Below, piece by piece: positions 11,333 to 37,969 of a stretch of 47,423 bases of DNA. Source of the DNA: a virus (taxonomy: Duplodnaviria; Caudoviricetes); the IMG/VR virus record IMGVR_UViG_3300002307_000077, positions 1 through 47,423 of that record. One strand, 5' to 3'. The notes beneath the pieces were generated by a model. That model was not told the origin of the DNA, ran no database searches, and worked only from the letters and a program-made list of their open reading frames with translations. Positions within the stretch are counted from its first letter, which is position 1, and each line of letters begins with the position of its first letter. The position numbers were made by a program, and so were the translations under genes.

Positions 11333-11470
11333 ATGGGCCATAGGGTTTGCTCAAAATGTAAGACTAACAAACCTCTGACTGAGTTTCGTAAAGACTCGCC
11401 TGCATTTGAAAATCTCAGCAAGAAAAACAAATTTCCTGAAGAATATCAGCACCTTGCGTGGGGGATTTAA
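11333..11470 (+). pseudogene. Internally deleted HNH homing endonuclease remnant (45 aa, absent from ORF track)
   Basis: Manual translation MGHRVCSKCKTNKPLTEFRKDSPAFENLSKKNKFPEEYQHLAWGI joins an N-terminal CxxC..KPLxEF motif to a C-terminal PA.ENLSK.NK motif; no HNH core. Confidence 0.6.
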
Positions 11471-11472
11471 TT

Positions 11473-14400
11473 ATGGGGGGAAAGACCAGTACATCAACCC
11501 AATCGGTGCAAATCCCGCCGGAAGTTCTGGCTCGATATAATGCTGTCAATAAACGCGCCGAAGAAGCTGCCTCCCAGCCTTTTCAAGAATATTCAAACGA
11601 TCCAAATGCGTTTGTCGCCCCTATAAATACTACTCAGCAGACCGGCATTAACCAGACTCTTAATGCGTCCCAGCAAGCACAGCCCTATTTTGGCGCTGCT
11701 ACTGGAATGACTGCTGCTGGTTCTGGAGCTGTTAACCCTGACCAGCTTCAAACTGCTCAATATATGAATCCATATACCCAGAATGTGGTGGATGCTACAA
11801 CTGCTGCTCTTCAACAACAGCAGGGCCAGCAACTTTCCCAACAACAAACACAAGCTATCAAGTCTGGCGCATTTGGCGGGAACCGTTCTGGATTGGAGAG
11901 GGCTGTTCTGCAAGGTCAGCAAGGTCTAGCTACAGCTCAAGCCATTTCTCCATTATATCAACGTGGCTATGAACAGGCTCTAGCCACAGCACAACAGCAA
12001 CAGGGCGTAAATTTAAGCGCTCAACAAGCTAACCAAGCTCGGCTTTTGCAAGGTGGTCAGCAACTGGCTGGGTTGGGTGCTGCCGCACAAACCGCTGGTT
12101 TGCAGGGTGCAAATGCTTTGCAACAAGCTGGCGCAACTCAGCAACAGACAACTCAAGCTGGTCTAGGCGCTCTCTACAATCAATGGCTACAGAAGCAAGG
12201 CTACCCCTATCAACAGGCTCAGTTCTTGGCAAATATTGCGGAAGGTACTGGTTCTCTGTCTGGGAGCACAACTACTACTAATCAGCCAGCTCCTTTCTTT
12301 GGATCTGATCGTCGCCTTAAGCATGACGTTAAGCGTATCGGTGAGACTGATAAGGGCCTGCCAATCTACAGCTTTAAGTATAAAGACGATCCCGAAGAGC
12401 AGACCCGCATTGGCTTTATGGCTGATGAAGTTGAGAAACGACATCCAGAAGATGTCGGCCTTTCTGGCGGTTACAAGACAGTTAATTATGAAGGTGTGGC
12501 AGACAAAGAAAGCCGCCCTCATCGTTACGATGGCGGTCTAGTCCCCGACTCTGCTGGCGGTGCTGTTATGCCAGAAATGTCAGGCGAGGGTTATGCTGAA
12601 GGTGGCATGGCTGGCGCTAGTGATTTTGTGCCTCCAATGCGTAGCATCTTTGGTAATCCCGGAGCTGGTGGCAATGCTGGGTTGGCGCAGGTCTTGGCTG
12701 CACAGCAAGGTAGCGGCCAACGCAAGTTAATGATGCCATCTCAAGGTTTGAAGCCGATTACACCAGAATTTAACCAATTGCTTGGCGCTGGTCAGCAGGT
12801 TGCTGATCTCGGTGGATTGGCTGGTAAGGGCTGGGATACCGGCAAGTCTGCGTTACTTGGCTCAGAAGCATATAAAGACTCTAAAACTGGTAAAGATATA
12901 GCCGCAACAACTGGCCTTATTGGCTCTGGCGGTTCATCTGATAATGCTGGTTATTTGAAGAAAATCTTTGGCAGTAGCCCCGGAATGGCTGGAGGAGGCG
13001 GTGTGAATCCTTACTCCATCTCAGACGATCCAATGGCGGATGTTGTTAAAGAAGGCGAGGAAAAGAAGCACGAGCTGATGAAGCCTAATCAAGCACCCGG
13101 CGCTCCTCCTAGCCCATTTAGCCAAATTATGGGCGGTGTTGGCGCTGCCACAAGTTTGGCAAAGGCTGGCACTACAGCAATGGAAGGGCTGGAAGCTCTT
13201 GGCGAGTTCTTGCCTATGCTTCTTCTTGCCAACGGCGGCGTTGCAGGTGGTCGTAAGCATTATGACGATGGTGGAGATGTTCCTCCAGAAACCGTGCCTC
13301 CGATGGATTATCGGTCTATGTTAGTCAATTCAGCTAAGAAAGCTGGGATTGATCCTGATAATTATGTAAGAGTTGCTCAAGCTGAAAGTTCGTTACGCCC
13401 ACGTTCTGGCGATGATGGATCATCTGGTGGCATTCTTCAATTCCATGTCGGTGATGTTTCTGAAAAGTATCCTCACGCTGGTTTGGGTAATGCAATATTT
13501 AAGGATGTATATCCCGAATTGGATAAATCGTTATCACCGCAAGAAAAAGTCAAATGGCTTAATGCGCCCGAAAATCAACAAGCTCTTTCTGATTATGGAG
13601 CGCAACATATAGCTAAAAACGGCTATGGAGCATGGACTACAGCGCGGCAAATGGGCCTTGCGGGCGGTCGCGGCTCTCGATCTGAGGCTTCTGCTCCTTC
13701 TAAGGGCGGCTTCAGCGGGATAAGCGCACCTGATACATTTAATAATCAACCTCAAGGTTGGGGTGATTTCCTGACAAGTAAGCAGTTTGTATTGCCGTTG
13801 CTTTCAGGTCTTGGGAAGATGGCTGGATCAAATAGCCGTTATCTAGGTTCGGCTGTGTTGCAGGGTTTGGGTGGAGCTGCTGAGTCTTACGAAAACCTAC
13901 AAAACCAAACTTCGCAGATTCAACTTCGTCAGTCTGAAATTGCCAAAAATACACTCGGCATGTTGAAAGATAGGTTTATCCCTATCCCGACAGGAACTGG
14001 CCAGCCTGCGTGGCGCGATACCATGACTGGTAAAATCCTTAATCAAGCTCAATTTGCTGCTGCAATGAGCGGGGCGGCTAGTGCAATGGGGAATGCTACT
14101 AATGTTCCTTACGCATCACCAGTTAGTACCAAAGACCCGATACAGATTGCGGGATCAACATCACCCGGCACAAATGCTGTAGCGAAATCTGGCGAAGACA
14201 TAATGAAGGCAAGTGGCGTTACGCCTGAGTCTGCTAAAAACACAGCTCCACCGCCGGATGCTTTTGCTAACGTAGCTGATGAATTTAACCCCTATTTGCT
14301 TACGCAGAAAGCTGAACAATATCGCAGGCTTTCAGAAGAAGCTCGTACTCTTGGTAAGGATAACCAATCGACTGGTTATTTGTCTGAGGCTGAAAAGTAC

Positions 14401-15246
14401 GAACAAAAAATTGAAAAAATTATGAAAGGTGATTTGCCTGTATTGGACAAAAACAATCAGCCTACTGTCATCAAAGAAATTCAAGAAAATATTAATCGTA
14501 AAAATGCGGATGCGGATTTTGCTAAATCAATGGCAACTCAACGTGGCGAATTTGCTAAAGCCGCAGATCAATATCTAGAAGAATTTGACCCGCAGCTTCA
14601 AATAATTATGGACTTATCACGAATTTACCAAATGGGTGAATTGGGTCGCGGATCTGAGGCTATTGCAGATCTGATAGGTTATGCCAGAAGAGTTCCATAT
14701 ATTGGCGAAATTCTTAAAGATAAGTTACCTGATCTTGTTGCATCACAATCTCTTAGTGACCAATCTAAAAAAGAATCTCTTACAATGGCGTTCAAAACCA
14801 TTAGGGAGGCTCAAGCCCAACGCGCTCCTGCTACAGCTTTGAAGGAAGCCGTGATGACAGTTGCGAATCCTGAAATGGCTCCTGAAGCTCGCTGGGGTCT
14901 CTTAACGAGCCAGCTTGGTCAGGAATTGTGGAAAAAAGCTCAAAATGAAGATTGGATTAATGCTGGAAGGCCGAATCATTCAAAATACCTTATTGATTGG
15001 AAGAAAGATCCTAAACATTCAATCGACAATTATGTAGAACAAGCTCGTAAAATGATCCCTGAATTTAAGGGTGTCACACCTACTGAGAGGCAAAATCGCC
15101 GTCCGTTAGGAAATGAAGGGCAACAACAACAGACATCTGTGCCTACTGTGACACCACAAATGGATCAGCAAGCCATTCAATGGGCTAAACAGCATCCGAC
15201 AGACCCGAAAGCCATTCAAATCTTGAAAGCAAATGGGGTTCAATAA
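11473..15246 (+). CDS. Large DNA ejection (internal virion) protein with internal S74-like domain and lysozyme/SLT-like domain
   Basis: Gln/Ala-rich N-terminus (YMNPY, GAFGG); GSDRRLKHDV...GFMADEVE...YKTVNY; AKKAGIDP...AQAESS...GILQF; ATG 11473 preferred. Confidence 0.8.
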   Translation: MGGKTSTSTQSVQIPPEVLARYNAVNKRAEEAASQPFQEYSNDPNAFVAPINTTQQTGINQTLNASQQAQPYFGAATGMTAAGSGAVNPDQLQTAQYMNPYTQNVVDATTAALQQQQGQQLSQQQTQAIKSGAFGGNRSGLERAVLQGQQGLATAQAISPLYQRGYEQALATAQQQQGVNLSAQQANQARLLQGGQQLAGLGAAAQTAGLQGANALQQAGATQQQTTQAGLGALYNQWLQKQGYPYQQAQFLANIAEGTGSLSGSTTTTNQPAPFFGSDRRLKHDVKRIGETDKGLPIYSFKYKDDPEEQTRIGFMADEVEKRHPEDVGLSGGYKTVNYEGVADKESRPHRYDGGLVPDSAGGAVMPEMSGEGYAEGGMAGASDFVPPMRSIFGNPGAGGNAGLAQVLAAQQGSGQRKLMMPSQGLKPITPEFNQLLGAGQQVADLGGLAGKGWDTGKSALLGSEAYKDSKTGKDIAATTGLIGSGGSSDNAGYLKKIFGSSPGMAGGGGVNPYSISDDPMADVVKEGEEKKHELMKPNQAPGAPPSPFSQIMGGVGAATSLAKAGTTAMEGLEALGEFLPMLLLANGGVAGGRKHYDDGGDVPPETVPPMDYRSMLVNSAKKAGIDPDNYVRVAQAESSLRPRSGDDGSSGGILQFHVGDVSEKYPHAGLGNAIFKDVYPELDKSLSPQEKVKWLNAPENQQALSDYGAQHIAKNGYGAWTTARQMGLAGGRGSRSEASAPSKGGFSGISAPDTFNNQPQGWGDFLTSKQFVLPLLSGLGKMAGSNSRYLGSAVLQGLGGAAESYENLQNQTSQIQLRQSEIAKNTLGMLKDRFIPIPTGTGQPAWRDTMTGKILNQAQFAAAMSGAASAMGNATNVPYASPVSTKDPIQIAGSTSPGTNAVAKSGEDIMKASGVTPESAKNTAPPPDAFANVADEFNPYLLTQKAEQYRRLSEEARTLGKDNQSTGYLSEAEKYEQKIEKIMKGDLPVLDKNNQPTVIKEIQENINRKNADADFAKSMATQRGEFAKAADQYLEEFDPQLQIIMDLSRIYQMGELGRGSEAIADLIGYARRVPYIGEILKDKLPDLVASQSLSDQSKKESLTMAFKTIREAQAQRAPATALKEAVMTVANPEMAPEARWGLLTSQLGQELWKKAQNEDWINAGRPNHSKYLIDWKKDPKHSIDNYVEQARKMIPEFKGVTPTERQNRRPLGNEGQQQQTSVPTVTPQMDQQAIQWAKQHPTDPKAIQILKANGVQ

Positions 15247-17612
15247 TGGACTTTGATCCTGATGCTTATCTTGCTCAAAAGGTAGGTAACACACCTGCCT
15301 CTGCGTCCAACGCGCCACCTGCCTTTGACCCAGATGCTTATCTGGCTCAGAAGATGGGTGGTAAACCATCTGCGCCAACGCCAGAGCAAGAGCATGAGGC
15401 CAATGTTGCCAAATATGCTGATGATGCTAAGAGATTCCATAATGAATTTCCATTAGAATCTGCACTCCCTAGCCTTCAATTGCCTATTATCAGCGATATA
15501 GCAAAAAAAGGTTCAGCATTTGTTTCCTCTTTAGTTCCGGGGAGCGAAGATAGATATGGCGCAACTCAAGGCGAGAGATACAAGAACATTTCTGCTCGTC
15601 AAGATGCTATAGAGCGGGAGCGTAAAGCAAGGCAGTCTGGTTTGTCATCGGCACTTGAGACAGCCGGTAATGTTGCTGGTTCTGTTGCTTTGACACCTGC
15701 TTTAGGCATTGAAGCTGCTGCTACAAGGGTATTACCTAATCTAGCTGGGCGCGTCTTGGGTGCGGCTGGTGAGGGTGCGGCATATTCTACGGCTGAACAT
15801 TTAGCGTCTGCACCTGCTGAAAAATCCGTTGGCAAAACATTGTCTGAGCTTCCGGGCGCGGCAGCTCAAGGCGCTTTGTTTGGTGCTGCTGCTGTGCCTG
15901 TTGGAGCTGCTATCGGTAAGGTTGGAGAAAAATCAAAAAGCGCATACAATTTTCTGTTCAATCCAGAAGAATATGCAGCTCAAAAACTGGCTACTGCGGC
16001 CAGAGAGGCTGCGCCAAATGCTCCCGGATTAAAGACGGGGGAAGCTGGGTATTTGGCTGAAGTCGGCGCTCCTGTAAGTGTTGCTGATGTTAGAGGCGTC
16101 AAGCCTGTTATAGAAAAAGCTGCGGCTATCTCACCGGAGAGTCAACACTTAGCTGAGATAAATCAATCTCTTAAAGATAGATTGCAAGAAAGCTCTCAGA
16201 CATTTCAAAATATTCTTGATAACTCTTATTCATCTCTTGTCGGCAAAGTTAATGCAAAAATAGATCCTGTTGCAGTTAAGAGAGAAGCTAGAGACGAGGC
16301 AATTAGTGTTAATAAGCCTGCTTATTTAGCGGCTTATAACGCCCCTGCTGCACAAAATATGTGGACACCAGAACTGCAAAATTTTGTTAACACAGAAGCA
16401 GGACAAAAGGCTGTCAAATTTGCAGTGGAGAACTCTAAACTAAGTGCGTTTGCAAAGGGTAATACTCCACAGAGAAATCCATTTATCAAGGATGATAATG
16501 GGATCTATGTGCTAAACCCTAGATCTGCACCGCCAAATCTTGAATTTTGGGATCAAGCTAAACGTGGCTTAAACGATCAAGTTTCCAGCTTGTATAGATC
16601 TGGTGACAATGGTGCAGCTAAAGTGGCGCGTGATGCCCAAGAAACTTTTACACAGCATCTGAAAGATGTAGTCCCGCAGTATCAAAATGCTCTGTCTGGC
16701 GCAAAGAGATATATAGATCAGGACAATGCTTTTGATGCAGGTATGGATTTCTTCCGTCTGGCAGATACAAGCACAAAAACAGACCCGTTAAAGCTGCGTA
16801 AACAAATTGAGTATTTCCAAACTCCTACTAATCAAGGTGGATATACACAAAAAGAAAAAGAAATGTTTAATCAGGGGCTTATCTCATACATTAAGGATAA
16901 CCCTATACAAGCTGCAAAAGTTTTCTCCAAAGCAGATGCAGTAACAATGAATAATCTATCGTCTGTTATGGAACCAGAACTATTGAAGGCCGCTTACACG
17001 GCTTCTCAAGTTAGTCGGCTGTCTGCGCTTACCCAAGAGATAAAAGTTAAAGAATCAAAAGGCTTGATAAAAAAACTAGGTGCTGGTGCTGGTTTATTCT
17101 TTCTTGCCTTAGCAGAACATCCAATTGAAAGCATACAGTATCTCTTTCAAAGCCAGCTTACTTCTGCTGGAACTACTCTTGGTGGTTTGGCTCTTCTTGG
17201 CGGCAAATTGGGGTATAATAAATTACAAATTGCCAGAGCTAATCGCATTTTAGAAATGGCAGCATCAACGGACCCCAGAATTATTAAGAAGTTGCATAGC
17301 GATGTATTGGGAAACCCCGAAGAGCAAAACCTTCTTCAGAATATGGAAACTGGTCTGCAAAGGTGGGTTCTTTATTCAAGAGAAAATGCTGGCGGGTTAG
17401 CTCGATATATGGGTACAGTAGCTGGTCAGGCGAACGGCGGTCGCATTGAGCGCAAATCTGGCGGTCGTATTAGCCCAGCCTCTAAAGCTGATAGGTTGAT
17501 CTTGGCCGCAGAGAAGGCTAAAAAGTACATCAATAAACATACAGAGGCGCTACTCAACGAGCCGGATGCCACTATAGTTCATGCTCTATCAATCGCTAAA
17601 AAGGCCATCTGA
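15246..17612 (+). CDS. DNA ejection (internal virion) protein
   Basis: FDPDAYLAQK twice at N-terminus, Ala/Gly-rich hydrophobic segments, follows the large ejection protein. Confidence 0.7.
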   Translation: MDFDPDAYLAQKVGNTPASASNAPPAFDPDAYLAQKMGGKPSAPTPEQEHEANVAKYADDAKRFHNEFPLESALPSLQLPIISDIAKKGSAFVSSLVPGSEDRYGATQGERYKNISARQDAIERERKARQSGLSSALETAGNVAGSVALTPALGIEAAATRVLPNLAGRVLGAAGEGAAYSTAEHLASAPAEKSVGKTLSELPGAAAQGALFGAAAVPVGAAIGKVGEKSKSAYNFLFNPEEYAAQKLATAAREAAPNAPGLKTGEAGYLAEVGAPVSVADVRGVKPVIEKAAAISPESQHLAEINQSLKDRLQESSQTFQNILDNSYSSLVGKVNAKIDPVAVKREARDEAISVNKPAYLAAYNAPAAQNMWTPELQNFVNTEAGQKAVKFAVENSKLSAFAKGNTPQRNPFIKDDNGIYVLNPRSAPPNLEFWDQAKRGLNDQVSSLYRSGDNGAAKVARDAQETFTQHLKDVVPQYQNALSGAKRYIDQDNAFDAGMDFFRLADTSTKTDPLKLRKQIEYFQTPTNQGGYTQKEKEMFNQGLISYIKDNPIQAAKVFSKADAVTMNNLSSVMEPELLKAAYTASQVSRLSALTQEIKVKESKGLIKKLGAGAGLFFLALAEHPIESIQYLFQSQLTSAGTTLGGLALLGGKLGYNKLQIARANRILEMAASTDPRIIKKLHSDVLGNPEEQNLLQNMETGLQRWVLYSRENAGGLARYMGTVAGQANGGRIERKSGGRISPASKADRLILAAEKAKKYINKHTEALLNEPDATIVHALSIAKKAI
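15887..16000 (+). repeat. 114-bp repeat, copy 1 (inverted relative to 28661-28774)
   Basis: Direct alignment to the reverse complement of 28661-28774: 111/114 identical. Confidence 0.97.
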
Positions 17613-17614
17613 AC

Positions 17615-19048
17615 ATGACAACGACAACAAACAAAAGTTTGAACGAACCTGCGATTGGCTCTTCTAGCTGGGGCGGTCCACTTAACGATAATTTTACATA
17701 TCTAGATGCTGCGTTGGGGTCTAGCACATCTCTTTCACTGACATCTGCTACATTAACTGTGTCGCAGTATCGCTCGCTGGTTTTGAGTGTTAGCGGAGCC
17801 AACAGTGCAGCCATTGTATATACAATTCCGGCTGGAGTTGGCGGTCAGTGGATTGTTAGCAACCAAACAACAGGCACTGGCACAATTACCGTCATACAAA
17901 GCGGCATTGGCGTTGCCTGCACGAATGGTAAGCATACGCTCGTCTATGCTAACGGCTCTGGCGTCTATACGGCGGATGACTGGCAGAGCGGTGGCGGTGG
18001 GGGTGGCGGATCTCCCGGCGGCTCAACAAATTCAATCCAATATAATACCAGTGGTACTTTTGGCGGCAGTGCCAATTTTACATATGATGGTACAAATGTT
18101 AACCAGATTGGCTCCACAAACGCCGAGTTGAAATATACAATCAATAACCAGCTTACAGGCGCTAGCGTTGCTTCGTCTTTGTATCTTACTGCTGGAACTG
18201 TTGGATCAGGGATTTACGGGTCGCTGTCCACTTGGAATAATAGTGGCACAAACTCCTACATGCAGCTATCTGGCAGCTCCGCTGTTGCCACTATCAATCA
18301 TGGTTTTACTACCCATAATTTCTATGCCTTGAACCTTTCGACACCATATGCACAGATTGGTACGGCAGGTCTTAAACTTGGCTCTTCATTAGCTCTCAAT
18401 ATTTATCATGATGGGTCTAATGCTTATTACACCACATCTACGGGTGATACGACATTCTCATCGCCCAACGCATCGCTGATTAAGTTTGTCAGCGCACCAT
18501 CTGGGGCACAACGTGCTACGTTAGATCCCAATGGTAATTTCTGTGCTGGTAATATTCCATCTCAAGCATCATCTGGCATCTATTCGTCCATTGCTGCTTC
18601 TGGTGTGTTCAACCGTGCTGGCGCTACAGGCACTCTTGGTAGCACAGTTTACAACATTGAGTTCTTAGGCGGCTCAAACTGTCATCTGTGGGTCGGTAAT
18701 AGCGACTTCGGTCAGATCTCGACAACATCTGACTATCGTTTGAAGAAAGACGTTACAACAACAATTATTCCAGCTTTGGACCGTGTTAATCGTCTGCGTC
18801 CAGTCAACTACGCATTTAAATATGACAGCATCCCCCGTGAAGGTTTTATCGCTCACGAAGTGCAGGAAGTCATCCCATCTGCGGTATCATACAACAAAGA
18901 TGATATTGCATCTGACGGAAAGATTCAGCCACAGTCACTGAATATTGCGCCTCTTGTCGCTGTATTGACAAAAGCTATACAGGAACTCAGCGCGGAAGTG
19001 TCTGCGCTGAGTAAAGAACTTGATGCTGTTAAGTCTAAGCTGCCTTGA
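17615..19048 (+). CDS. Tail fibre with C-terminal peptidase S74 chaperone
   Basis: N-terminal WGGPLNDNF anchor, poly-Gly hinge, SDYRLKKDV, GFIAHEVQEVIP, terminal coiled coil. Confidence 0.85.
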   Translation: MTTTTNKSLNEPAIGSSSWGGPLNDNFTYLDAALGSSTSLSLTSATLTVSQYRSLVLSVSGANSAAIVYTIPAGVGGQWIVSNQTTGTGTITVIQSGIGVACTNGKHTLVYANGSGVYTADDWQSGGGGGGGSPGGSTNSIQYNTSGTFGGSANFTYDGTNVNQIGSTNAELKYTINNQLTGASVASSLYLTAGTVGSGIYGSLSTWNNSGTNSYMQLSGSSAVATINHGFTTHNFYALNLSTPYAQIGTAGLKLGSSLALNIYHDGSNAYYTTSTGDTTFSSPNASLIKFVSAPSGAQRATLDPNGNFCAGNIPSQASSGIYSSIAASGVFNRAGATGTLGSTVYNIEFLGGSNCHLWVGNSDFGQISTTSDYRLKKDVTTTIIPALDRVNRLRPVNYAFKYDSIPREGFIAHEVQEVIPSAVSYNKDDIASDGKIQPQSLNIAPLVAVLTKAIQELSAEVSALSKELDAVKSKLP

Positions 19049-19571
19049 TCTGCGGTTTCTTAAACGGTGCAGGGTGGTAGCAAAGACTGTAATGGTATGG
19101 GCACATAGATGCTCTATGAATTTTTGCACCGCAGTATAGTGTATCTGCGTCATCTACTTCACCAATGATATACCTACAGCTATCAATCTTTAGATCCGTT
19201 ATATAAATAGGATCATTGGTTGGAGGTATTAGCGGTTCCATTACCATGCGCTTCTCCCTAAGTGGGAATGGAATTGTTTTACCTTTAAGTTTATGTTTGT
19301 TGTTAATACTTTGTTCTTGCTGTGATTTTTGCATCCTATTCAGCTCAACTTTACGTTCTTCTTTTCGTTGAAAATAAATAGAACGTCTAGTTTCTTTAGG
19401 TATAACTTTTGGTTTTATATCTACCCATCCAGCAGCCCTAGCTCTTCCTACGCGGCCAATGACTGCATTCCTTGTTATATGTAATACCCTACCTATTTCA
19501 GTTGCTGTGCTACCTTCGTTCCACATTTTCAAAATAAGATCTAAATCTTCTTTTTTAGCCTTATCAACCAT
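19035..19571 (-). CDS. gcrA: GcrA cell-cycle regulator homologue
   Basis: N-terminal LKMWNEGSTATEIG...TRNAVIGRV.R HTH and C-terminal L...CRY.IG......YCG......CPYH...CY. Confidence 0.88.
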   Translation of the reverse strand: MVDKAKKEDLDLILKMWNEGSTATEIGRVLHITRNAVIGRVGRARAAGWVDIKPKVIPKETRRSIYFQRKEERKVELNRMQKSQQEQSINNKHKLKGKTIPFPLREKRMVMEPLIPPTNDPIYITDLKIDSCRYIIGEVDDADTLYCGAKIHRASMCPYHYSLCYHPAPFKKPQIKAA

Positions 19572-21007: not shown

Positions 21008-21205
21008 TTACTCACCTTCTACATTTAACACTTTGCTAATTTTGCTTCTAACATCTGTTGCTGACCAACAATCGCATTTGCTATAAATATCTTTAAGAAG
21101 TTCTGCCATCTCTTCAATGCGATCAGCGGATTCTGAAGCAAGGCTCCAACGCAAAACCGTCTCTGGGTCTTCAGCCCGCAGCCGCTTCACAAGATCGTCC
21201 ATCAT
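21008..21205 (-). CDS. Array mini-gene (modules C + degenerate B)
   Basis: MMDDLVKRLR start; ADRIEE. Confidence 0.75.
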   Translation of the reverse strand: MMDDLVKRLRAEDPETVLRWSLASESADRIEEMAELLKDIYSKCDCWSATDVRSKISKVLNVEGE

Positions 21206-21644
21206 CTTTCCCCTCCAGTGCTTTGCGGGCGTTTAGATTGATGTGAAACACCAAATCTACGAGAGATTTGATAGAAACGTTGCCCTCTGGGTTTTTGAAA
21301 GGGTGAATGTCGATTATCTCCCGCAGCGCCGCCTCTAACTGTTCGATGCGGCTGGCTTGTTCTGCGCACTTTTCGTCGATGATCTTGACGTACTCACTAT
21401 CAGACATGACCGACAGGCGTAGCTTTTCTAATGTTTGATTATACAATTTGCCCCATTTGTTTCTTGATTTAATTAGCCGCTTTACTTCCGCCTCCAGCTT
21501 CTCGATGCGGTCGGCGGCTTGTTTTTCAAAAATAATATTTAAGCTTTTTAAACCCATTCTTTCAACAGCCAAACCAATCTCGTAGTCATACTTCTTATTG
21601 TTTTCTATGTAGGCGGTAAATATCTTCCCAAGACCATTAGTCAT
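21171..21644 (-). CDS. Array mini-gene (B, B, A), 157 aa
   Basis: True start MTNGL at 21644 behind the GGAGG of the connector; ADRIEKLEA, SRIEQLEAALREIID, ARKALEGKDD. Confidence 0.75.
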   Translation of the reverse strand: MTNGLGKIFTAYIENNKKYDYEIGLAVERMGLKSLNIIFEKQAADRIEKLEAEVKRLIKSRNKWGKLYNQTLEKLRLSVMSDSEYVKIIDEKCAEQASRIEQLEAALREIIDIHPFKNPEGNVSIKSLVDLVFHINLNARKALEGKDDGRSCEAAAG

Positions 21645-21879
21645 CTTTCCCCTCCAGTGCTTTGCGGGTAACGCCAACCATTTCTATCAACAACCTCAGC
21701 AAGTAGCCTTCAGCTGCCGTCATTGGCTCAGGTATGCCTTCAGACCCTGCATATACCTCATAAATCTCCCGCAGCGCCGCCTCCAACTGCTCGATGCGGG
21801 CTTCTAATTTGGCAACGTGTCCTGCACGACGCATTGCCTCAAGCGTGTCTGGGTGGATAACTGTATAACGATCAATCAT
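21637..21879 (-). CDS. Array mini-gene (B, A)
   Basis: ARIEQLEAALREI; RKALEGKDD. Confidence 0.75.
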   Translation of the reverse strand: MIDRYTVIHPDTLEAMRRAGHVAKLEARIEQLEAALREIYEVYAGSEGIPEPMTAAEGYLLRLLIEMVGVTRKALEGKDD

Positions 21880-22076
21880 TTCGGAACCTCTAGTTTTGCT
21901 TCCTGCATCATTTGTGCAATTTGGTAGGCCAGTTGAGGCTCAAGCCTGAAATATATTACCTTCCCATCTTTATCTTTCAGATTTCGAGCGGCCATCATGA
22001 GCCATTCGGCCAGTTCCTCAGTGTTTTTAGGCTTGTAACTTGAGAGAAGTGACATTGGGCTTTTAGGCGGGATCAT
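21876..22076 (-). CDS. Hypothetical protein (66 aa)
   Basis: Coupled start/stop overlaps on both sides. Confidence 0.65.
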   Translation of the reverse strand: MIPPKSPMSLLSSYKPKNTEELAEWLMMAARNLKDKDGKVIYFRLEPQLAYQIAQMMQEAKLEVPK

Positions 22077-22357
22077 TACTTGTCTCCTTTATTAGGATTC
22101 CAATCTGGAAGATTCAGATCATCTCTTACAATGTTTGTAATATACCCAACTACATACCATCGTTTTCCATTATTATGTTCAGCCATTAAATGCCATCTGT
22201 CACCATATGGCCCAATGCTAAATTGATAAAAATCGTCGTCGTCACCCCATTGTTTTACAAAATCAATGTTAAGCAACTCCTCAAAAGTTTTGAAGTTTTG
22301 CGTCGCAGGATCAAATCCAGACACAAAGTTTGGTATGTGCTGCTTAATCGTCCCCAT
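22076..22357 (-). CDS. Hypothetical protein (93 aa)
   Basis: TGATG overlap with upstream gene; aromatic-rich. Confidence 0.7.
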   Translation of the reverse strand: MGTIKQHIPNFVSGFDPATQNFKTFEELLNIDFVKQWGDDDDFYQFSIGPYGDRWHLMAEHNNGKRWYVVGYITNIVRDDLNLPDWNPNKGDK

Positions 22358-22656
22358 CACTCATCCCCCTTCTTAGGCGGTGGCGGAAGTGGCATCCAGT
22401 GGGTGGGAACTACAGCGGAACGATGATACTCAGATGTCCATGTCATTCCATTTGTTGCCCAGCGCATAGCAAGAACCCACTGCCCGTTACTTCCAATGAT
22501 TGCCCCAATATCTTTTGGCGCGTTCTCTATAGGTTGCCATCCTGAGTCGATTATCTCCCGCAGCGCCGCCTCCAGCTTCTCAATGCGGTCACGATCAACG
22601 GCTTTTTGGCGCAACATTTCATTGACTGCGCTTGCTATTGTTTCTGCTTCAGTCAT
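22357..22656 (-). CDS. Array mini-gene: module B fused to DUF551-like domain (99 aa)
   Basis: Start MTEAE at 22656; DRIEKLEAALREIID followed by GWQPIENAPKD...PTHWMPLPPPP. Confidence 0.8.
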   Translation of the reverse strand: MTEAETIASAVNEMLRQKAVDRDRIEKLEAALREIIDSGWQPIENAPKDIGAIIGSNGQWVLAMRWATNGMTWTSEYHRSAVVPTHWMPLPPPPKKGDE

Positions 22657-23020
22657 CCTTCCACTCCAGTGCTTTACGGGCGATAACAATTCGCTCAGAC
22701 AATATCTGCGCGATGTCGAACATGTTGGTCACGGAACTTGTTGACCATTCAGTCGTGTAGCCTTCTGCTACTTTTGCCAGCGCCGCCTCAAGCTCCTCGA
22801 TGCGGTCTTCGGCGTCGAGCATCCGAAGTTCAAAGCTCAGGGCCTTGCCAAGTTGTTCCGCGAAGTCCGCCTGTGTGTTCGCCAAATGCCTCCCCAACGC
22901 CTCAATTCGGTCGGCTGCTTCTTGCCTTTCACCCCACAATGTTACTCGCGCCTCACGTTGATACTGCCGATCTTCTGGCAATTCATCTGCGCGTAACCGC
23001 TTCACAAGATCGTCAGTCAT
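22649..23020 (-). CDS. Array mini-gene (C, B, B, A)
   Basis: MTDDLVKRLR; ADRIEAL; DRIEELEAAL; ARKALEWKDD. Confidence 0.78.
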   Translation of the reverse strand: MTDDLVKRLRADELPEDRQYQREARVTLWGERQEAADRIEALGRHLANTQADFAEQLGKALSFELRMLDAEDRIEELEAALAKVAEGYTTEWSTSSVTNMFDIAQILSERIVIARKALEWKDD

Positions 23021-23208
23021 TACTCATCCCCCTTCTTAGGCGGTGGTGGAAGCGGCATCCAATGGGTGGGATCGCGTTTCTCATAGGTTGTTTGCTCAAG
23101 CCACCACGTCGTTCCACAAAAAAACCCGATCAAAATATCATCGCCACAAAACACCAAAACGTTTATGTAATCTTTTGGCGCGGTCTCTATAGGTTGCCAT
23201 TCAGTCAT
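23020..23208 (-). CDS. DUF551-like protein (62 aa)
   Basis: MTEWQPIETAPKD...PTHWMPLPPPP; start at 23208 in the connector. Confidence 0.82.
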   Translation of the reverse strand: MTEWQPIETAPKDYINVLVFCGDDILIGFFCGTTWWLEQTTYEKRDPTHWMPLPPPPKKGDE

Positions 23209-23512
23209 CTTGCCCCTCCAGTGCTTTGCGGGCGATTTGTCTGGCTTCCCAAAGCATGTGGCGCGCGTAATCCAACTCAGGGACATCTGCATATGCATAG
23301 CTCGGGTTACCATCGTGAATGTGTGACAGCGCCTCCAGCGCCGCTTCCAGCTTCTCGATGCGGTCGGCTGTGACAGATGCAGCCGCAATCCAACAAGATT
23401 GACGATCTTCGCCAAGCTCATTCCATGTCCACAGTGGTTTGCCATCAATGGTTTTGCCGCCAGCCTGAATGGAATAGGCATTCCACATAAGTTTTGCGAT
23501 ATTTTCACTCAT
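23201..23512 (-). CDS. Array mini-gene (unique N-domain, B, A), 103 aa
   Basis: Start MSENI at 23512; ADRIEKLEAAL; ARKALEGQDD. Confidence 0.75.
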   Translation of the reverse strand: MSENIAKLMWNAYSIQAGGKTIDGKPLWTWNELGEDRQSCWIAAASVTADRIEKLEAALEALSHIHDGNPSYAYADVPELDYARHMLWEARQIARKALEGQDD

Positions 23513-23738
23513 CTTTTTTCTCCTCAACAAGAGCTGCAACCTTAATTTTCAAAAGATGTTCGTATGCCATCTCGCACTTCTCCGCATAGGAAAGGCCCAT
23601 CTCACTCAACATGCCAAGAGCAACTAGCAGCGCCGCCTCCAGCTGTTCGATGCGGTCGGCAGCTTCATAACGCAACGCCTGTTCATCTGCGCTAGTATGT
23701 ATGCCAATACGCAGCCGCCTCACAAGATCGTCAGTCAT
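23505..23738 (-). CDS. Array mini-gene (C, B), 77 aa
   Basis: MTDDLVRRLR at 23738; ADRIEQLEAAL. Confidence 0.75.
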   Translation of the reverse strand: MTDDLVRRLRIGIHTSADEQALRYEAADRIEQLEAALLVALGMLSEMGLSYAEKCEMAYEHLLKIKVAALVEEKKDE

Positions 23739-24045
23739 CTTTCTTACCCTTCTTCCTTTCAACGATTGCCCTAAGCTTTTCAACGTACCAATCCCAACGG
23801 CACGATGCGCGATCCTTCAGGCTCTCTATCTTGTCTGCAATGAACAGTTCATGCCCATCAAGCAGGCGCTTGTTTAGCGCCATGATGGCAATGACTTCCC
23901 AATCTGCTTGGTCCTGTTTGGCTTGTTGCGCTGCAAGACGAACTCCGTCATTGATGCCTTTTATAGCCCATCCTATTGCATCCTCATCTTTCTCAATGGT
24001 GCGGCAAATATGAAGATAGAATTGAGCCTTTTCCTGTTCAGTCAT
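23731..24045 (-). CDS. Hypothetical protein
   Basis: Coupled; ends KKDD in an AAAGATGA junction. Confidence 0.7.
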   Translation of the reverse strand: MTEQEKAQFYLHICRTIEKDEDAIGWAIKGINDGVRLAAQQAKQDQADWEVIAIMALNKRLLDGHELFIADKIESLKDRASCRWDWYVEKLRAIVERKKGKKDD

Positions 24046-27129: not shown

Positions 27130-27611
27130 CGTTTACCTATTAATATTTTAGCGTTTGTCATATCAATATATGCGTTTTCTCTAACTATTTTGCCTCCATT
27201 CATGGTGGCTTGTGTTCGTGACATTTTGTTTTCTATTTTAACATTCCAGCCAGTCTCTGGTTTCCAAATTGTTTCAAAGTATAAGGCATCTTCTTTTGCC
27301 AAATAGAAGAACCCTATAAATGGAACTTGAAGACTATCCGCAACTTTTGCTGCCTTGCGGATCTTCTCTGCTGTTACCAGCCATTGCTCTCTAAACTTAT
27401 ACTGGAACACGCTTATCGTTAGAATTGTTCGGCATTTAGTTTCCACAACGCCGACAATCTTATCATCTTTCACCAGAACAGCATCAACAATCGCTGGTCG
27501 ATCTTTTGGCGTTTCGCAATACCTTATCTTAGGGTATTTCTCATGCCAAAGCTCAACAGCTTTGATTTCTTGTAATCTAGATCGTTGACCTTTCGGCGTG
27601 AGAATATCCAC
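27126..27611 (-). CDS. PD-(D/E)xK-type nuclease-like protein
   Basis: VDA...VVETKCR motif. Confidence 0.6.
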   Translation of the reverse strand: MDILTPKGQRSRLQEIKAVELWHEKYPKIRYCETPKDRPAIVDAVLVKDDKIVGVVETKCRTILTISVFQYKFREQWLVTAEKIRKAAKVADSLQVPFIGFFYLAKEDALYFETIWKPETGWNVKIENKMSRTQATMNGGKIVRENAYIDMTNAKILIGKR

Positions 27612-27862
27612 TAGAAAGGAATCTCATCATCAATGTTAGTCGGGCCTTTAGCCTCGACACGAGAGCGGGTTTGAGGCGATGCATCTTTCTGCTTAAAAGA
27701 GAACGAAAAAAACTTGCCTGTTTTGCCTTCTTTGATCCAAGCAGAGATCCAGTATTCTACGCCAGAGATAAGGGCTTTGCCATTATAGTCAGGGTGAGTG
27801 TCCAGCTCTTTGCGGTCATTCTTGAATAATGTACCCGTGTTGTCTCTAACTTCATATGCCAT
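27611..27862 (-). CDS. Small single-stranded DNA-binding protein
   Basis: GTLFKN..K....PDY.G......YWISAW; acidic DDEIPF tail; next to exonuclease and ERF. Confidence 0.72.
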   Translation of the reverse strand: MAYEVRDNTGTLFKNDRKELDTHPDYNGKALISGVEYWISAWIKEGKTGKFFSFSFKQKDASPQTRSRVEAKGPTNIDDEIPF

Positions 27863-28478
27863 TATATTGTTCTCCAAGTTTATTCAGTTTGTGTATTTTA
27901 TCGTTAAGCTCGTTGATGAACTTAACAACCTCTGCTTCCAGATCTGCAATCCTGCTATCGTCACGTTCGATGCGCTGGGTAAACAACGCAAGTTTCGGTG
28001 GGACGCGAGGGTCGAAGCTGATGAAATCACACCATTGCCTTCCAGTGCAAGCCATCTGCCACATCATTTGCGGAATGTATTTGTCTGGTATTTCTCCAGA
28101 CATTACAGTTTCCAGATGAGTGCTCGTGTTTGGACACTTGATCTCAATCAACCCGTCATCATCCACGAGCCCATCTGGACTGCATCCGCTGTTCTCAATG
28201 CTGGGGTGGGGAACAAACCCGATTGTCTGAACGAGATTACCGTGAAGGCCCTCATACACCTCACGAGCAGTCTTTTCATGGGCTGTCCCCCACTCCATCG
28301 CTGGCGTTTTGTATTTCTCGACGGGTAGCCCAGTAATACGTTCCACCAACAATTCTGACATATAGGTTGCCCGCAATGATGAATATCCATTGCGAGTCCT
28401 AGCTGAAAGATCTGCGACACGGCTAGCTGTCACCTTGCCGCATCTGGCATCGAACCACTCTTTAGAGCCCTGTTCCAT
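27852..28478 (-). CDS. YqaJ / lambda-exonuclease family protein
   Basis: QGS.EW...R.G.VTAS; MEWG..HE; SPDG; IEIKCP; Q..WQM. Confidence 0.92.
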   Translation of the reverse strand: MEQGSKEWFDARCGKVTASRVADLSARTRNGYSSLRATYMSELLVERITGLPVEKYKTPAMEWGTAHEKTAREVYEGLHGNLVQTIGFVPHPSIENSGCSPDGLVDDDGLIEIKCPNTSTHLETVMSGEIPDKYIPQMMWQMACTGRQWCDFISFDPRVPPKLALFTQRIERDDSRIADLEAEVVKFINELNDKIHKLNKLGEQYNGI

Positions 28479-28479
28479 G

Positions 28480-29268
28480 TCAGCCTTCCTGCTTTTCTTC
28501 GTCAGCCAGAACACCAGCCCGTTTCATGTCTGCAATGACATTGGAGTCAATTGAAACACGAACATTCTGAGGTAGTATAGACCACCAAGAACGAAGCGGG
28601 ATAGACCCTAATGCAGCTCTACTAAACCCTTCTGCGATAATATCATCAATGCTTTTATCAGCCACAGTAGCCAGTTTTTGAGCTGCATATTCTTCTGGAT
28701 TGAACAGAAAATTGTATGCGCTTTTTGATTTTTCTCCAACTTTACCGATAGCAGCTCCAATAGGCACAGCAGCATCAAACTCTGTGTCAGGCTTTGGCTT
28801 GGCGGGTGCTTTAGACTTCTCGCCCTTTTTAGGTGCTGACTCTGCAACGAAGTGGTTCGTTGCAAACTTTGCCTTATCTGGCTCAACAGCGGCATTACCA
28901 TCATCATCTTCAGTAGCGAGACACAGTAGTGACATAATGCCATAGCGCCTTGCATATGTGAGCGCAGAGCCGATGCCATGAGCATCTGCCTTCGCAATAG
29001 GAACCCATGTGGACGCCACCATGAATTGGCCGGAACTATGTAACAGCATTGTCTCCACAGATACGCCATTCTGTCCCACAGTCGGGAACTGTGTTAAGGC
29101 CAACTCATTTTCGGACAGCGGGTCTTTAATCGTGCTGCGTACTGATGATAGATCCGCGTACTTGGATTTAAAAAACGGATTCTGTGCATTCTTTGTAGCG
29201 TCTTGGATCGCACCTTGTGCCTTAGCTAATGCTCCAGCCAACTGGCCGATTTCTTCACTCATCTTCAT
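28480..29268 (-). CDS. erf: ERF-family ssDNA annealing recombinase carrying a 38-aa ejection-protein insert
   Basis: ALAKAQ, NPFFKSKYADL, GSALTYARRY, EDDDGNAA; insert at 28661-28774. Confidence 0.9.
   Translation of the reverse strand: MKMSEEIGQLAGALAKAQGAIQDATKNAQNPFFKSKYADLSSVRSTIKDPLSENELALTQFPTVGQNGVSVETMLLHSSGQFMVASTWVPIAKADAHGIGSALTYARRYGIMSLLCLATEDDDGNAAVEPDKAKFATNHFVAESAPKKGEKSKAPAKPKPDTEFDAAVPIGAAIGKVGEKSKSAYNFLFNPEEYAAQKLATVADKSIDDIIAEGFSRAALGSIPLRSWWSILPQNVRVSIDSNVIADMKRAGVLADEEKQEG
28661..28774 (-). repeat. 114-bp repeat, copy 2 (inside erf)
   Basis: Mismatches to copy 1 only at 28664, 28741 and 28761. Confidence 0.97.
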
Positions 29269-36060: not shown

Positions 36061-36122
36061 GTGACCAAACCAAACGACCGACCGACCGACCAATTGTGTC
36101 ACTGTAATAATTACAATTGTGC

Positions 36123-36172
36123 TAAATTATTTACTTGCATCTGCCAGTCAATTTGATAGTGTCATTTTGTCA
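36123..36172 (+). promoter_or_regulatory. Probable promoter with TGTCA-N3-TGTCA box
   Basis: TAAATTATTTAC, TTGCAT, 16 nt, TAGTGT, box at 36160-36172. Confidence 0.55.
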
Positions 36173-36192
36173 CCTAACCAATGGGGTCTAAA

Positions 36193-36417
36193 ATGTCTTA
36201 TAAACCCGAAGTCCAAACAGATAGCACGGGACAATGGTACGGTAATGCATTGCGCTTTGCGACCGAGCAAGAGGCCTATGATAGTGCCAGAGACTTAGCG
36301 GCGCGTTGGTTCGCCGTTTTGTCATACCGTGCGACCAAGAGCGATGAGCCCGTGAATTATACCTACCACGATCACAAGTTGGCACAAGTTGAAAAGGAAA
36401 CGACCAATGACCATTGA
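36193..36417 (+). CDS. Hypothetical phage protein
   Basis: W.GNALRFATE.EA motif; promoter upstream. Confidence 0.72.
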   Translation: MSYKPEVQTDSTGQWYGNALRFATEQEAYDSARDLAARWFAVLSYRATKSDEPVNYTYHDHKLAQVEKETTNDH

Positions 36418-36610
36418 CCAAGCAATCTCGATTTTAGGTATTAATCGGGCTCGATATGAAGTCCAAAATATGGCAATTGCACTCACTTTTGGTTCATATC
36501 TTAACACAAAACAAGAGCAAGATAGGCTTGAGGCTTCCACTTTTGTGCTTAAGCATTGGAAAGATTATCAACAGGCTTGCCAGCAAGAGCGCGATTCGCT
36601 TTTGCGTTAA
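36407..36610 (+). CDS. Hypothetical protein
   Basis: AAGGA RBS before ATG 36407. Confidence 0.65.
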   Translation: MTIDQAISILGINRARYEVQNMAIALTFGSYLNTKQEQDRLEASTFVLKHWKDYQQACQQERDSLLR

Positions 36611-36633
36611 TGGCCCAAAGGCTCAAATATCAA

Positions 36634-36672
36634 TTGACATAATGACAATGCTTAGCTATTGTCATTATGTCA
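36634..36672 (+). promoter_or_regulatory. Promoter embedded in a perfect 15-bp-arm inverted repeat
   Basis: TTGACA (36634), 17 nt, TATTGT (36657); TGACATAATGACAAT-N8-ATTGTCATTATGTCA. Confidence 0.8.
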
Positions 36673-36692
36673 CTTATTTTATGGGGTTTAAT

Positions 36693-37379
36693 ATGTCTTA
36701 CAATGTTGCCTTTACACGCTTTTCGCGCAATGCAAAGACTGGTCCAATTCCAGTCTCTACAACGACCTATGAGACTTGCCCAATCGGTTGTCCATTGCGT
36801 GACAATGGCTGTTACGGAAGCGGCGGACCATTGGGAATGTTTTGGGCCAAAGTCACAAGCGGAAGCGCAAGCATTGGGTGGCAAGCATTCCTGAAATCAG
36901 TCTCAAAATTGCCTAAAGGCACGCTTTGGCGTCACAATCAAGCTGGTGACCTGCCAAGCCGAGACAAAATCAATATTGACAGCGAAACATTGTCTCAATT
37001 GGTTAAGGCTAACAAAGGCAAGAGAGGCTTCACATATACTCATTATGATATTTTAAACAATGAAACTAATAAACAAGCTATAAAAAAAGCCAATGAATTA
37101 GGCTTTAGGATTAACTTAAGCGCTAATAATCTTGAACATGCGGATAGGCTTTATGACACTGGCATTGCGCCCGTTGTCACAATCTTGCCAGAAAGCGCCA
37201 AGCCAAGCGACGATATTATAACGCCACAGGGGCGCAAAGTCGTGATTTGTCCTGCTACCTATCGGGACGATGTGACTTGCATGTCATGCGGCATATGCTC
37301 AAAAGAGCGCAAAGCAATCATTGGTTTCCCCGTGCACGGGGTTCAAAAGCGCAAAGCCAATGTGGTGGCCAATAGCTAG
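36693..37379 (+). CDS. Cys-rich probable Fe-S protein (gp88 / radical-SAM-like fold), 228 aa
   Basis: TCPIGCPLRDNGCY, WRHNQAGD, FTYTH, CPA......CMSCGIC; ATG 36693 follows the promoter. Confidence 0.65.
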   Translation: MSYNVAFTRFSRNAKTGPIPVSTTTYETCPIGCPLRDNGCYGSGGPLGMFWAKVTSGSASIGWQAFLKSVSKLPKGTLWRHNQAGDLPSRDKINIDSETLSQLVKANKGKRGFTYTHYDILNNETNKQAIKKANELGFRINLSANNLEHADRLYDTGIAPVVTILPESAKPSDDIITPQGRKVVICPATYRDDVTCMSCGICSKERKAIIGFPVHGVQKRKANVVANS

Positions 37380-37394
37380 CAATAGGCAAAGAAA

Positions 37395-37425
37395 TAGGGC
37401 CCGTATAGGGCCCTAGTCTTTTGAT
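37395..37425. terminator. Probable bidirectional terminator between convergent genes
   Basis: TAGGGCCC-GTATA-GGGCCCTA with T-rich 3' and A-rich 5' flanks. Confidence 0.7.
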
Positions 37426-37439
37426 TTATTATATTTGGT

Positions 37440-37649
37440 TTATTTCACTGCAGTAATAATCCCGTCCTTTAGTGTGACTTGTCCGAACCATTCGCGCCCT
37501 AGATTAGTAATATGTGGCCGATTTGCGACTGTTATTGTGCCATTGTCTTTATATTCGGGTCCGAAAATGCTAGTCTCAATATAACGCAAAGGCTTGCCAA
37601 TATTTGCTTTGCACTCTTTCTTTGAGGGGTATTTTGCAATAAGGGTCAT
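37440..37649 (-). CDS. Hypothetical phage protein (69 aa)
   Basis: YPSKKE.K..IG..L.YIETS.FG.EY; AAGGA RBS. Confidence 0.75.
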   Translation of the reverse strand: MTLIAKYPSKKECKANIGKPLRYIETSIFGPEYKDNGTITVANRPHITNLGREWFGQVTLKDGIITAVK

Positions 37650-37671
37650 TAGTTTAGTCCTTTTGTTTAGG

Positions 37672-37722
37672 TGACAATATGACAATATAATAAAGACAAA
37701 ATATCGCCAAGTAAATAATTAA
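37672..37722 (-). promoter_or_regulatory. Probable promoter with TGTCA-N3-TGTCA box
   Basis: TTAATTATTTAC, TTGGCG, 17 nt, TATTGT; box at 37672-37684. Confidence 0.55.
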
Positions 37723-37969
37723 GAATGTTTGTAATGTCTTTTTTACACTTGTGGTTGATTGTTAATCTAGTCTTTACATTGTCAAGCAATTCATTACAAT
37801 TAATTTAAACGGGTTTTAAAGGCTTTTGAGGGGCTTTTGCAATTGCGGGTGCAGTCATACCGGCATTGTCATTATGTCGCATGGGTGACGGTTTCGTGTT
37901 TTGTTCTCGTTTTAAGACTTGTTTGCAGGAAATTGCTGCGAAACAGCTTGGCCGCATAGGGGAGAGATT

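Follow-up and report, generated by a model that had tools for sequence, protein, structure and literature searches.

Introduction

The closest solved relative of the recombinase described here is Gp77 of phage SECphi27 (PDB 9y6u), in which residues 1-125 form a 24-mer ring and the remainder of the protein is peripheral and flexible. The gene for Gp77 is essential to its phage, and ERF rings trigger the host defence RAZR (PMC13017515). In Red-beta, the C-terminal domain binds both the exonuclease and SSB by way of a flexible linker (PMC11611040). The pairing segment of Red-beta measures 23-27 bp and that of RecA 31-34 bp, the published substrates of such annealases run to hundreds of bases, and the Erf/Exo pair of D3 can invert, in lambda, a segment flanked by inverted repeats of 800 bp (PMC3945230).

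Illegitimate recombination in phage mosaicism was reportedly treated by Morris et al. in 2008. Template-switch insertions, whether of the MMBIR/FoSTeS type or as templated mutagenesis in T4, are known mainly from eukaryotes or as short local changes. Work on mosaicism describes joining at little or no homology, and survival of the product when coding is kept, for gene-sized exchanges between genomes (PMC8136500, PMC3945230).

The locus examined here shares these two properties with phage mosaicism, whereas the piece that moved is smaller than a gene, 108 nt copied from the same genome type, and donor, empty site and allele are all available for inspection. As in MMBIR/FoSTeS-type insertions, the copy derives from a distant locus, is inverted, cost the target no sequence and shows 2 nt of exact together with longer imperfect homology. 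We propose, with a probability of roughly 0.8, that a segment of a probable ejection protein gene entered erf by a one-off, microhomology-primed templated insertion, and that it likely persists as a tolerated, neutral scar in a predicted-flexible linker.

Results

A podovirus-like phage with an ERF module

The window (the whole stretch of DNA analysed, 47,423 nt) is a linear virus record with an estimated completeness of 82%. It belongs to a podovirus-like phage with an SU10-type portal and adaptor, a terminase and fibres, and the phage is present in freshwater metagenomes. A GcrA homologue at 19035-19571 (-) suggests an alphaproteobacterial host. Coordinates of the features discussed below are collected in Table 1.

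Table 1. Positions in the window of the two genes that share a segment, their neighbours and the parts of the repeat.
Feature	Position	Strand	Remarks
Upstream ejection/virion protein gene	11458-15246	+	phrog_6121, E 2e-19; phrog_4287 DNA ejection protein, E 3e-9
Donor gene	15246-17612	+	788 aa; phrog_5880 (PHROG 5880, E 2e-31)
Donor left border	15878-15891	+	GTTTGGTGCTGCTG; agrees at 11/14 with the empty erf site of L003, GTTTGATGTGGCTG
Donor segment	15888-15995	+	Donor residues 215-250; matches the insert at 106/108
Small single-strand DNA binding protein gene	27611-27862	-	Same module as erf; phrog_18154, E 6e-18
YqaJ/lambda-exonuclease-like gene	27852-28478	-	Directly downstream of erf; Pfam YqaJ, E 3e-29
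erf gene	28480-29268	-	262 aa (P0001); Pfam ERF, E 3e-23; PHROG 2324/155
Exact core, 76 nt	28665-28740	-	Common to 15921-15996
Insert, 108 nt / 36 codons	28666-28773	-	ERF residues 166-201; borders can shift by 2 nt (TG)

The erf gene most likely starts at the ATG at 29268. Its product scores 82.7 bits against PF04404 (ERF), for a cut-off of 25, and carries GS-x-x-TY-x-RRY and acidic DDD motifs, which we take to be the ERF signature. The residues Y, R, R, D, D, D, G and N are invariant in 86/86 aligned ERF sequences, the query included. An annealing domain (approximately residues 1-125) is followed by a linker and a three-helix C-terminal domain (approximately 202-262), and a model built on the 86 sequences gave pLDDT values of 81-98 per block in both domains. 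The top Foldseek match of this model was Gp77 (E 4e-8), followed by Mgm101 and RAD52, which indicates a Rad52-like fold. Among ERF homologues, Gp77 was the one solved structure found; its N-terminal domain is 37% identical to the present one (TM 0.80 over the target), and the two proteins are alike in having a flexible C-terminal region (PMC13017515). The YqaJ-like exonuclease is the likely partner of ERF. Elsewhere, in four proteins of 480-562 aa (P0159-P0162), the ERF domain is joined to 5'-3' exonuclease domains (PF01367, PF02739).

Two copies of one segment, in inverted orientation and the same frame

A preliminary description of this DNA had noted that erf carries an in-frame copy of part of an ejection-protein gene, and pairwise comparison of 15887-16000 (+) with 28661-28774 (-) reproduced the identity it gave (111/114 positions), the shared codon phase of the two copies within their ORFs and the quoted peptide. 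The copies differ at 15900/28761, 15920/28741 and 15997/28664. The length of 38 codons had to be revised, as the empty allele of L003 defines an insert of 108 nt, or 36 codons, and the remaining 6 nt of the 114-nt match belong to the recipient and are similar to the donor's flanks. Likewise, the count of three mismatches stands for the repeat, but just two of them fall inside the insert, with 28664 being the recipient's own base. In a self-comparison of the window this is the longest inverted repeat (117 nt, 97%), with the runner-up at 35 nt and 80%.

A pattern scan of viral contigs located the segment nowhere but in the window's own record. A mobile palindromic element in coding sequence, of the RPE/REP type, was ruled out by the finding of two copies only and by ordinary folding, with z values of 0.05 (donor) and -0.32 (empty site) and no unusual hairpin. 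A promoter gained with the insert was also rejected: the 9/12 consensus match at 28738-28711 is one of 7 in the region, where shuffled sequences give 5.0 +/- 2.3, and was taken as chance. The pentapeptide GEKSK occurs at ERF residues 149-153, in the native linker of this allele, and at 178-182, in the insert, in different codons, and its recurrence is probably a matter of chance in Lys-rich sequence.

Other repeats in the window are of a different kind. A small-ORF array at 21177-23750 (-) contains boundary and internal repeats of 28-57 nt (D1, D2, D6, D10, D12) and a recurring segment of the 'ADRIEQLEAAL' type; many joints between these repeats occur in other phages of the examined runs, at depths in the hundreds, as for exchangeable cassettes. 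Between 34712 and 36080, intergenic direct repeats (75 nt at 92% and 38 nt at 97%; D5, D7, D16) precede small leftward ORFs, two of which start with the same peptide, and these repeats are possibly a repeated promoter module. Imperfect inverted-repeat pairs (I2 and I5; 36110-36181 and 37663-37735) flank a block at 36181-37685 that holds a DUF7227 gene.

The donor is probably a P22 gp16-like ejection protein

The donor protein belongs to phrog_5880, an unannotated family (12/12; 12,014 representatives). It gave no significant Pfam match, with none to PF26808 (Phage_P22_gp16) in the Pfam copy scanned, and no PDB sequence match. Three lines of evidence nevertheless make it a probable ejection protein of the P22 gp16-like type, as judged from sequence. 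Its gene follows those for an acetyltransferase and the phrog_4287/6121 protein, an order that fits an ejection cassette placed after the tail genes; its Atlas features lie at 0.92-0.93 to clusters with PF26808 (170-172 features shared; PF26808 present in 9/30 matches); and 11/32 of its homologues, a chosen set biased to long ones, carry extensions of the cell-wall hydrolase type. In size, position, Gly/Ala-rich hydrophobic stretches and Atlas features it resembles the described gp16-like proteins (PF26808; PMC8954989, PMC8402733), from which it differs in lacking a direct profile match and in the unannotated state of its family.

A metagenome scan with the donor protein returned only the window itself, three relatives whose similarity is confined to its last 60-70 residues, and six weak matches at the N-terminus. 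GenBank phages gave a single match of 7% coverage, and the fragments G001 and G002 do not include the donor. Relatives L084 and L085 suggest that the ejection cassette is exchanged as a unit: over the compared interval 11977-17436, they match the window at 79% between 11.98 and 13.28 kb, then show no long match until similarity resumes at about 90% from 17.43 kb onwards, and L086 matches on the right side only. The gene at 11458-15246 (+) has an internal Peptidase_S74 domain (residues 283-331), which is also found in both fibre genes.

The insert is present in read-derived contigs of three runs

Four runs contain 98% of the region's words, and three of them (X1, X3 and X4) were examined; all may be the source of the window. 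In X1 and X4, contigs with zero differences stop at 15950 and 28694 and restart at 15967 and 28711, which places the breaks 30 letters into the 76-nt core on all four sides, a core that contigs made from short words cannot phase across. The four flanks are equal in depth in the read-derived contigs (7.6-9.0 in X1, 20.3-22.8 in X4 and 43-45 in X3). In X3, the one run where the core is listed, it forms its own contig of exactly 76 nt at depth 80.9, about twice that of the flanks. The 28774 junction is spanned by 63 contig letters that include both diagnostic bases. At the 28665 junction the contig enters the insert by 30 letters, all donor-derived and missing from the empty allele, which is one short of our 31-letter bridging rule. 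No empty-site joint is listed in X1, X3 or X4, whose contigs drop rare variants. Furthermore, the same ERF protein (P0001) is recorded on 5 contigs from three sources, and a 70,742-base contig carries both the same ERF and the same donor protein.

An assembly chimera, against which the three mismatches had been cited at the outset, is effectively refuted by these data. The letter that is missing at 28665, and the possibility that X1, X3 and X4 are themselves the origin of the window's DNA, are the points in its favour. Against it, contigs assembled separately in three runs agree, with 0 other letters, equal depths and the X3 core at 80.9; one junction is fully bridged; and P0001 recurs on contigs from three sources. 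Four equal-depth flanks around the exact core characterise 3/3 same-strain runs examined.

The segment was copied from the ejection gene into erf

The empty site was found in two records by the pattern scan of viral contigs, and in L002 and L003 the 108 nt are missing at this site with nothing else lost. In three runs from three other studies (X5, X6 and X14), position 28664 is joined to 28773 with an ambiguity of 2 letters, at depths of 22.9, 14.8 and 25.8; these joints were placed at 85% likeness with 31 letters on the short side. X7, in which a contig ends at 28664 with 85 unplaced letters, was left out of the counts. At the protein level the insert occurs in 1/22 close ERF proteins, this being the window's own, and the junction is empty in 21/22, in a set that leaves out 3 members of one cluster. 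Apart from the insert, the natural 226-aa allele P0136 departs from the window's ERF at a single residue. Conversely, the segment is retained in 8/8 close and 2/2 more distant (68%) ejection alleles that cover the region, and its occupancy across 107 family homologues is 0.84.

Since the other close ERF alleles are empty and the close donor alleles all keep the segment, the direction of copying from the ejection gene to erf is settled at the level of sequence comparison, in agreement with the capture first suggested and with the alignment of homologues put forward as its check: the ejection family normally holds the segment and ERF normally lacks it. Copying from erf into the ejection gene is excluded by the same allele counts and by the family occupancy. 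The insert is, on these alignments, strain-specific and entailed no loss of erf sequence. We self-compared 80 further ERF loci (909,940 bp; repeats of at least 50 nt and at least 90%) and none of the repeats touched the ERF match; the 10-kb flanks used would miss even the present case, with its donor 12.7 kb away, and no rate follows from this comparison. A literature search, with most subscription papers outside its reach, returned no report of a phage event exactly like this one.

The insertion is young on the scale of the species

Close donor alleles fall into two classes, IGKVGEK (2/8, including the window) and AGKIVDK (6/8), and the insert is of the IGKVGEK class, like the minority allele of the window's own donor. 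Between the insert and the donor contigs of X5, X6 and X14 there are 10-12 differing letters, as against 2 differences in 108 nt between the insert and the window's donor. The first of these is a V in the donor and an I in the insert; with V in 8/8 close donors, the change probably arose in the erf copy. The second is silent and falls in a lysine codon, where X5, X6 and X14 read as the insert does, suggesting that the change probably arose in the donor or that the template was a sibling genome.

The divergence between insert and donor has a 95% range of 0.2-6.7%, which overlaps the 2.0-2.5% that separates the window from X6 (64/3,124 and 98/3,858), and 'recent', the term used initially, is therefore a loose one. 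By these differences and its presence in 1/22 alleles, the insertion would be young on the species scale, and not necessarily fresh. A dense substitution block at donor residues 222-227 (15909-15926, +), IGKVGE against AGKIVD, separates the allele classes and suggests patch exchange.

Junctions and a model for the origin of the insert

The left border of the donor and the empty erf site agree at 11/14 positions when a one-codon (3-nt) slip in a GCT run is allowed, and the exact overlap at both ends of the insert is the 2 nt TG. A score of 11/14 is reached at 7/94,659 window sites, the donor included, and at 0.05% of 6,286 codon-phased sites. The rank of the left junction varies with window size (7 to 494 sites as good in windows of 10-20 nt, and 42-494 at sizes other than 14 nt), and P is about 0.001-0.07, depending on that size, after allowing for 13 offsets. 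The right border, at 7/14, is near chance, being equalled by 2.5-15% of sites. Left-junction microhomology had been noted earlier; it survives in the comparison of donor with empty allele, but the original comparison used the filled allele and in part set the insert against itself.

These findings enable us to propose a model. In erf, a free 3' end with the terminal letters ...GTTTGATG would have mispaired with the similar left border of the donor, been extended by 108 nt on the donor template with the slip of one GCT unit, and rejoined erf at the 2-nt TG overlap with no erf sequence lost. In this model the left border would be the priming site and the right border a loose return, and the template may have been this genome's own allele or that of a near-identical co-infecting sibling. 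What was found matches a templated insertion, namely an empty allele without target loss and a template elsewhere in the genome (106/108, own allele class). Selection would have kept an in-frame, stop-free product, the kind that leaves ERF intact, and the shared frame then reflects survival and not design. Among random 108-mers, 29% are stop-free and 37% of those are in the native frame (32 listed genes), so the shared frame needs no function to explain it.

Which machinery made the insert is a separate matter. It was suggested at first that ERF itself made the capture, and it is possible, if less likely, that ERF with its exonuclease caught the mispairing: in the relaxed homologous recombination of Rad52-like annealases there is a precedent, the ERF, YqaJ-like exonuclease and SSB genes adjoin here, and the finished repeat is a plausible substrate (PMC3945230). 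However, the longest exact run at the break is 2 nt against a pairing segment of 23-27 bp, a threshold taken from Red-beta and not from ERF, and the junctions of 11/14 and 7/14 fall well below the substrates published for annealases (PMC3945230). The role of ERF in making the insert is unproven, as the junction homology is too short for published Red or RecA pairing, and we favour a replicative polymerase switch or end joining as the probable source.

The insert lengthens a variable linker between two intact domains

As described initially, the insert follows the annealing domain, and the linker that takes it up is hypervariable, with an intact domain on either side. Across this linker, the conserved anchors N and W stand 30-67 residues apart in 85 homologues, with a median of 40; in the present protein the distance is 103. 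Residues 163-190 of the model are below pLDDT 50, a low score to be expected for an insert without alignment depth; a helix is modelled at 191-203, spanning the start of a donor-derived helix, and the insert is not featureless. With the insert, the protein is predicted to work as a usual ERF ring whose C-terminal domain is held on a longer tether. The insert-bearing strain occurs at depths of 8-45 in X1, X3 and X4, which would imply a functional long allele, provided that this phage, too, requires ERF. Neutrality, which was one of the options raised at the start, is suggested by linker position and by rarity (1/22).

It is conceivable, though improbable, that the added linker length confers a mild, non-specific advantage, by giving the C-terminal domain more reach to the exonuclease or the host SSB or by shielding the ring from a host sensor, and that the allele swept locally. 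The contacts made by the Red-beta C-terminal domain over a flexible linker (PMC11611040), the triggering of RAZR by ERF rings (PMC13017515), and the lack of a listed empty allele in X1, X3 and X4, runs that may be one population, are compatible with such a benefit. Against this, the Gp77 study places RAZR escape mutations at residues 19-41 and finds activation unaffected by deletion of the C-terminal region (PMC13017515). Moreover, the allele is absent from 21 other close alleles and from three other studies, and local fixation is explained by hitch-hiking or drift. Compared with Gp77, the insert follows the ring domain and lies outside the RAZR-contacting part (PMC13017515). RAZR escape as the role of the insert was itself set aside, as the position of the escape sites and the dispensable C-terminal region do not support it (PMC13017515).

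Virion loading and membrane contact

The preliminary description also raised the idea that the insert acts as a virion-loading or membrane-contact tag, such that ERF is packaged, co-injected and joins the genome ends on entry. Its appeal lies in the probable nature of the donor, in the start of a family-conserved helix within the insert (consensus N-P-x-x-E-A-x-R-R, partly degenerate here), in the 10-residue N-terminal tag that suffices to load T4 IPIII (PMC8402733) and in the circularisation of P22 DNA by Erf upon entry (PMC13017515). As regards membrane contact, the insert starts halfway through the most hydrophobic stretch of the donor (residues 205-223, hydropathy 1.55), and the best 19-residue value over the insert in ERF is 0.42, below the maxima of the soluble ERF domains (0.95 and 0.92); no hydrophobic 19-residue stretch of the membrane-anchor kind is present, and this part of the idea was not supported. 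As regards loading, P22 gp7 uses residues 21-154 and gp20 its first 314, regions of 134-314 residues, whereas a gp16 fragment of 171 residues went undetected in particles (PMC8402733). The segment is internal in both proteins, unlike the N-terminal capsid tag of T4 IPIII (PMC8402733); a 24-mer ring like that of Gp77 would presumably have to disassemble to pass the portal; and 1/22 alleles has the insert. Given that the insert halves the donor's hydrophobic helix and sits in a hypervariable linker, we consider loading or membrane contact very unlikely.

A possible inversion between the copies

An in-frame inverted repeat could invert the intervening 12.7 kb. Inversion would be predicted to yield two in-frame hybrids, one of 739 aa joining the N-terminal part of ERF to the C-terminal part of the ejection protein, the other of 311 aa joining the ejection N-terminal part to the ERF C-terminal domain. 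Programmed inversion of the Gin/Cin type relies on a site-specific invertase and leaves the population with genomes of both orientations. No invertase was found among the 26 window proteins scanned, an ORF subset of a genome estimated to be 82% complete. Hybrid proteins were absent from searches covering 143-455, 433-1379 and 460-2000 residues (8,000 candidates each) and from the listed cluster members (15/18 listed for one cluster).

That the 114-nt repeat is an invertible switch, flipping the 12.7 kb to make hybrids of use to the phage, strikes us as remote. Both copies are in the same frame, the 76 exact nucleotides exceed the pairing segments of Red-beta (23-27 bp) and RecA (31-34 bp), and D3 Erf/Exo does invert repeats, albeit of 800 bp (PMC3945230), from which occasional inversion is to be expected. 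Besides the missing hybrids, however, inversion would split the ejection gene and move a fibre gene and many early-type genes between operons, which is probably lethal, and we would expect inversions to be rare and mostly dead. A recombinase as virion cargo, whether by a 36-residue piece that loads ERF or by a 12.7-kb flip whose 739-aa ERF-ejection hybrid is injected with the DNA, joining genome ends before gene expression, is most doubtful.

Discussion

The insert defines no new system, and its importance would be much greater only if ERF were virion-borne or the inversion hybrids useful. If it is a neutral scar, as we think likely from its rarity and position, it documents a single illegitimate-recombination event in a wild phage with unusual completeness, as donor, recipient, empty site, origin allele and junctions are all visible. 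It shows pieces smaller than a gene moving between unrelated genes, and the acceptance of 36 foreign residues by the ERF linker marks this position as a permissive site for tagging annealases.
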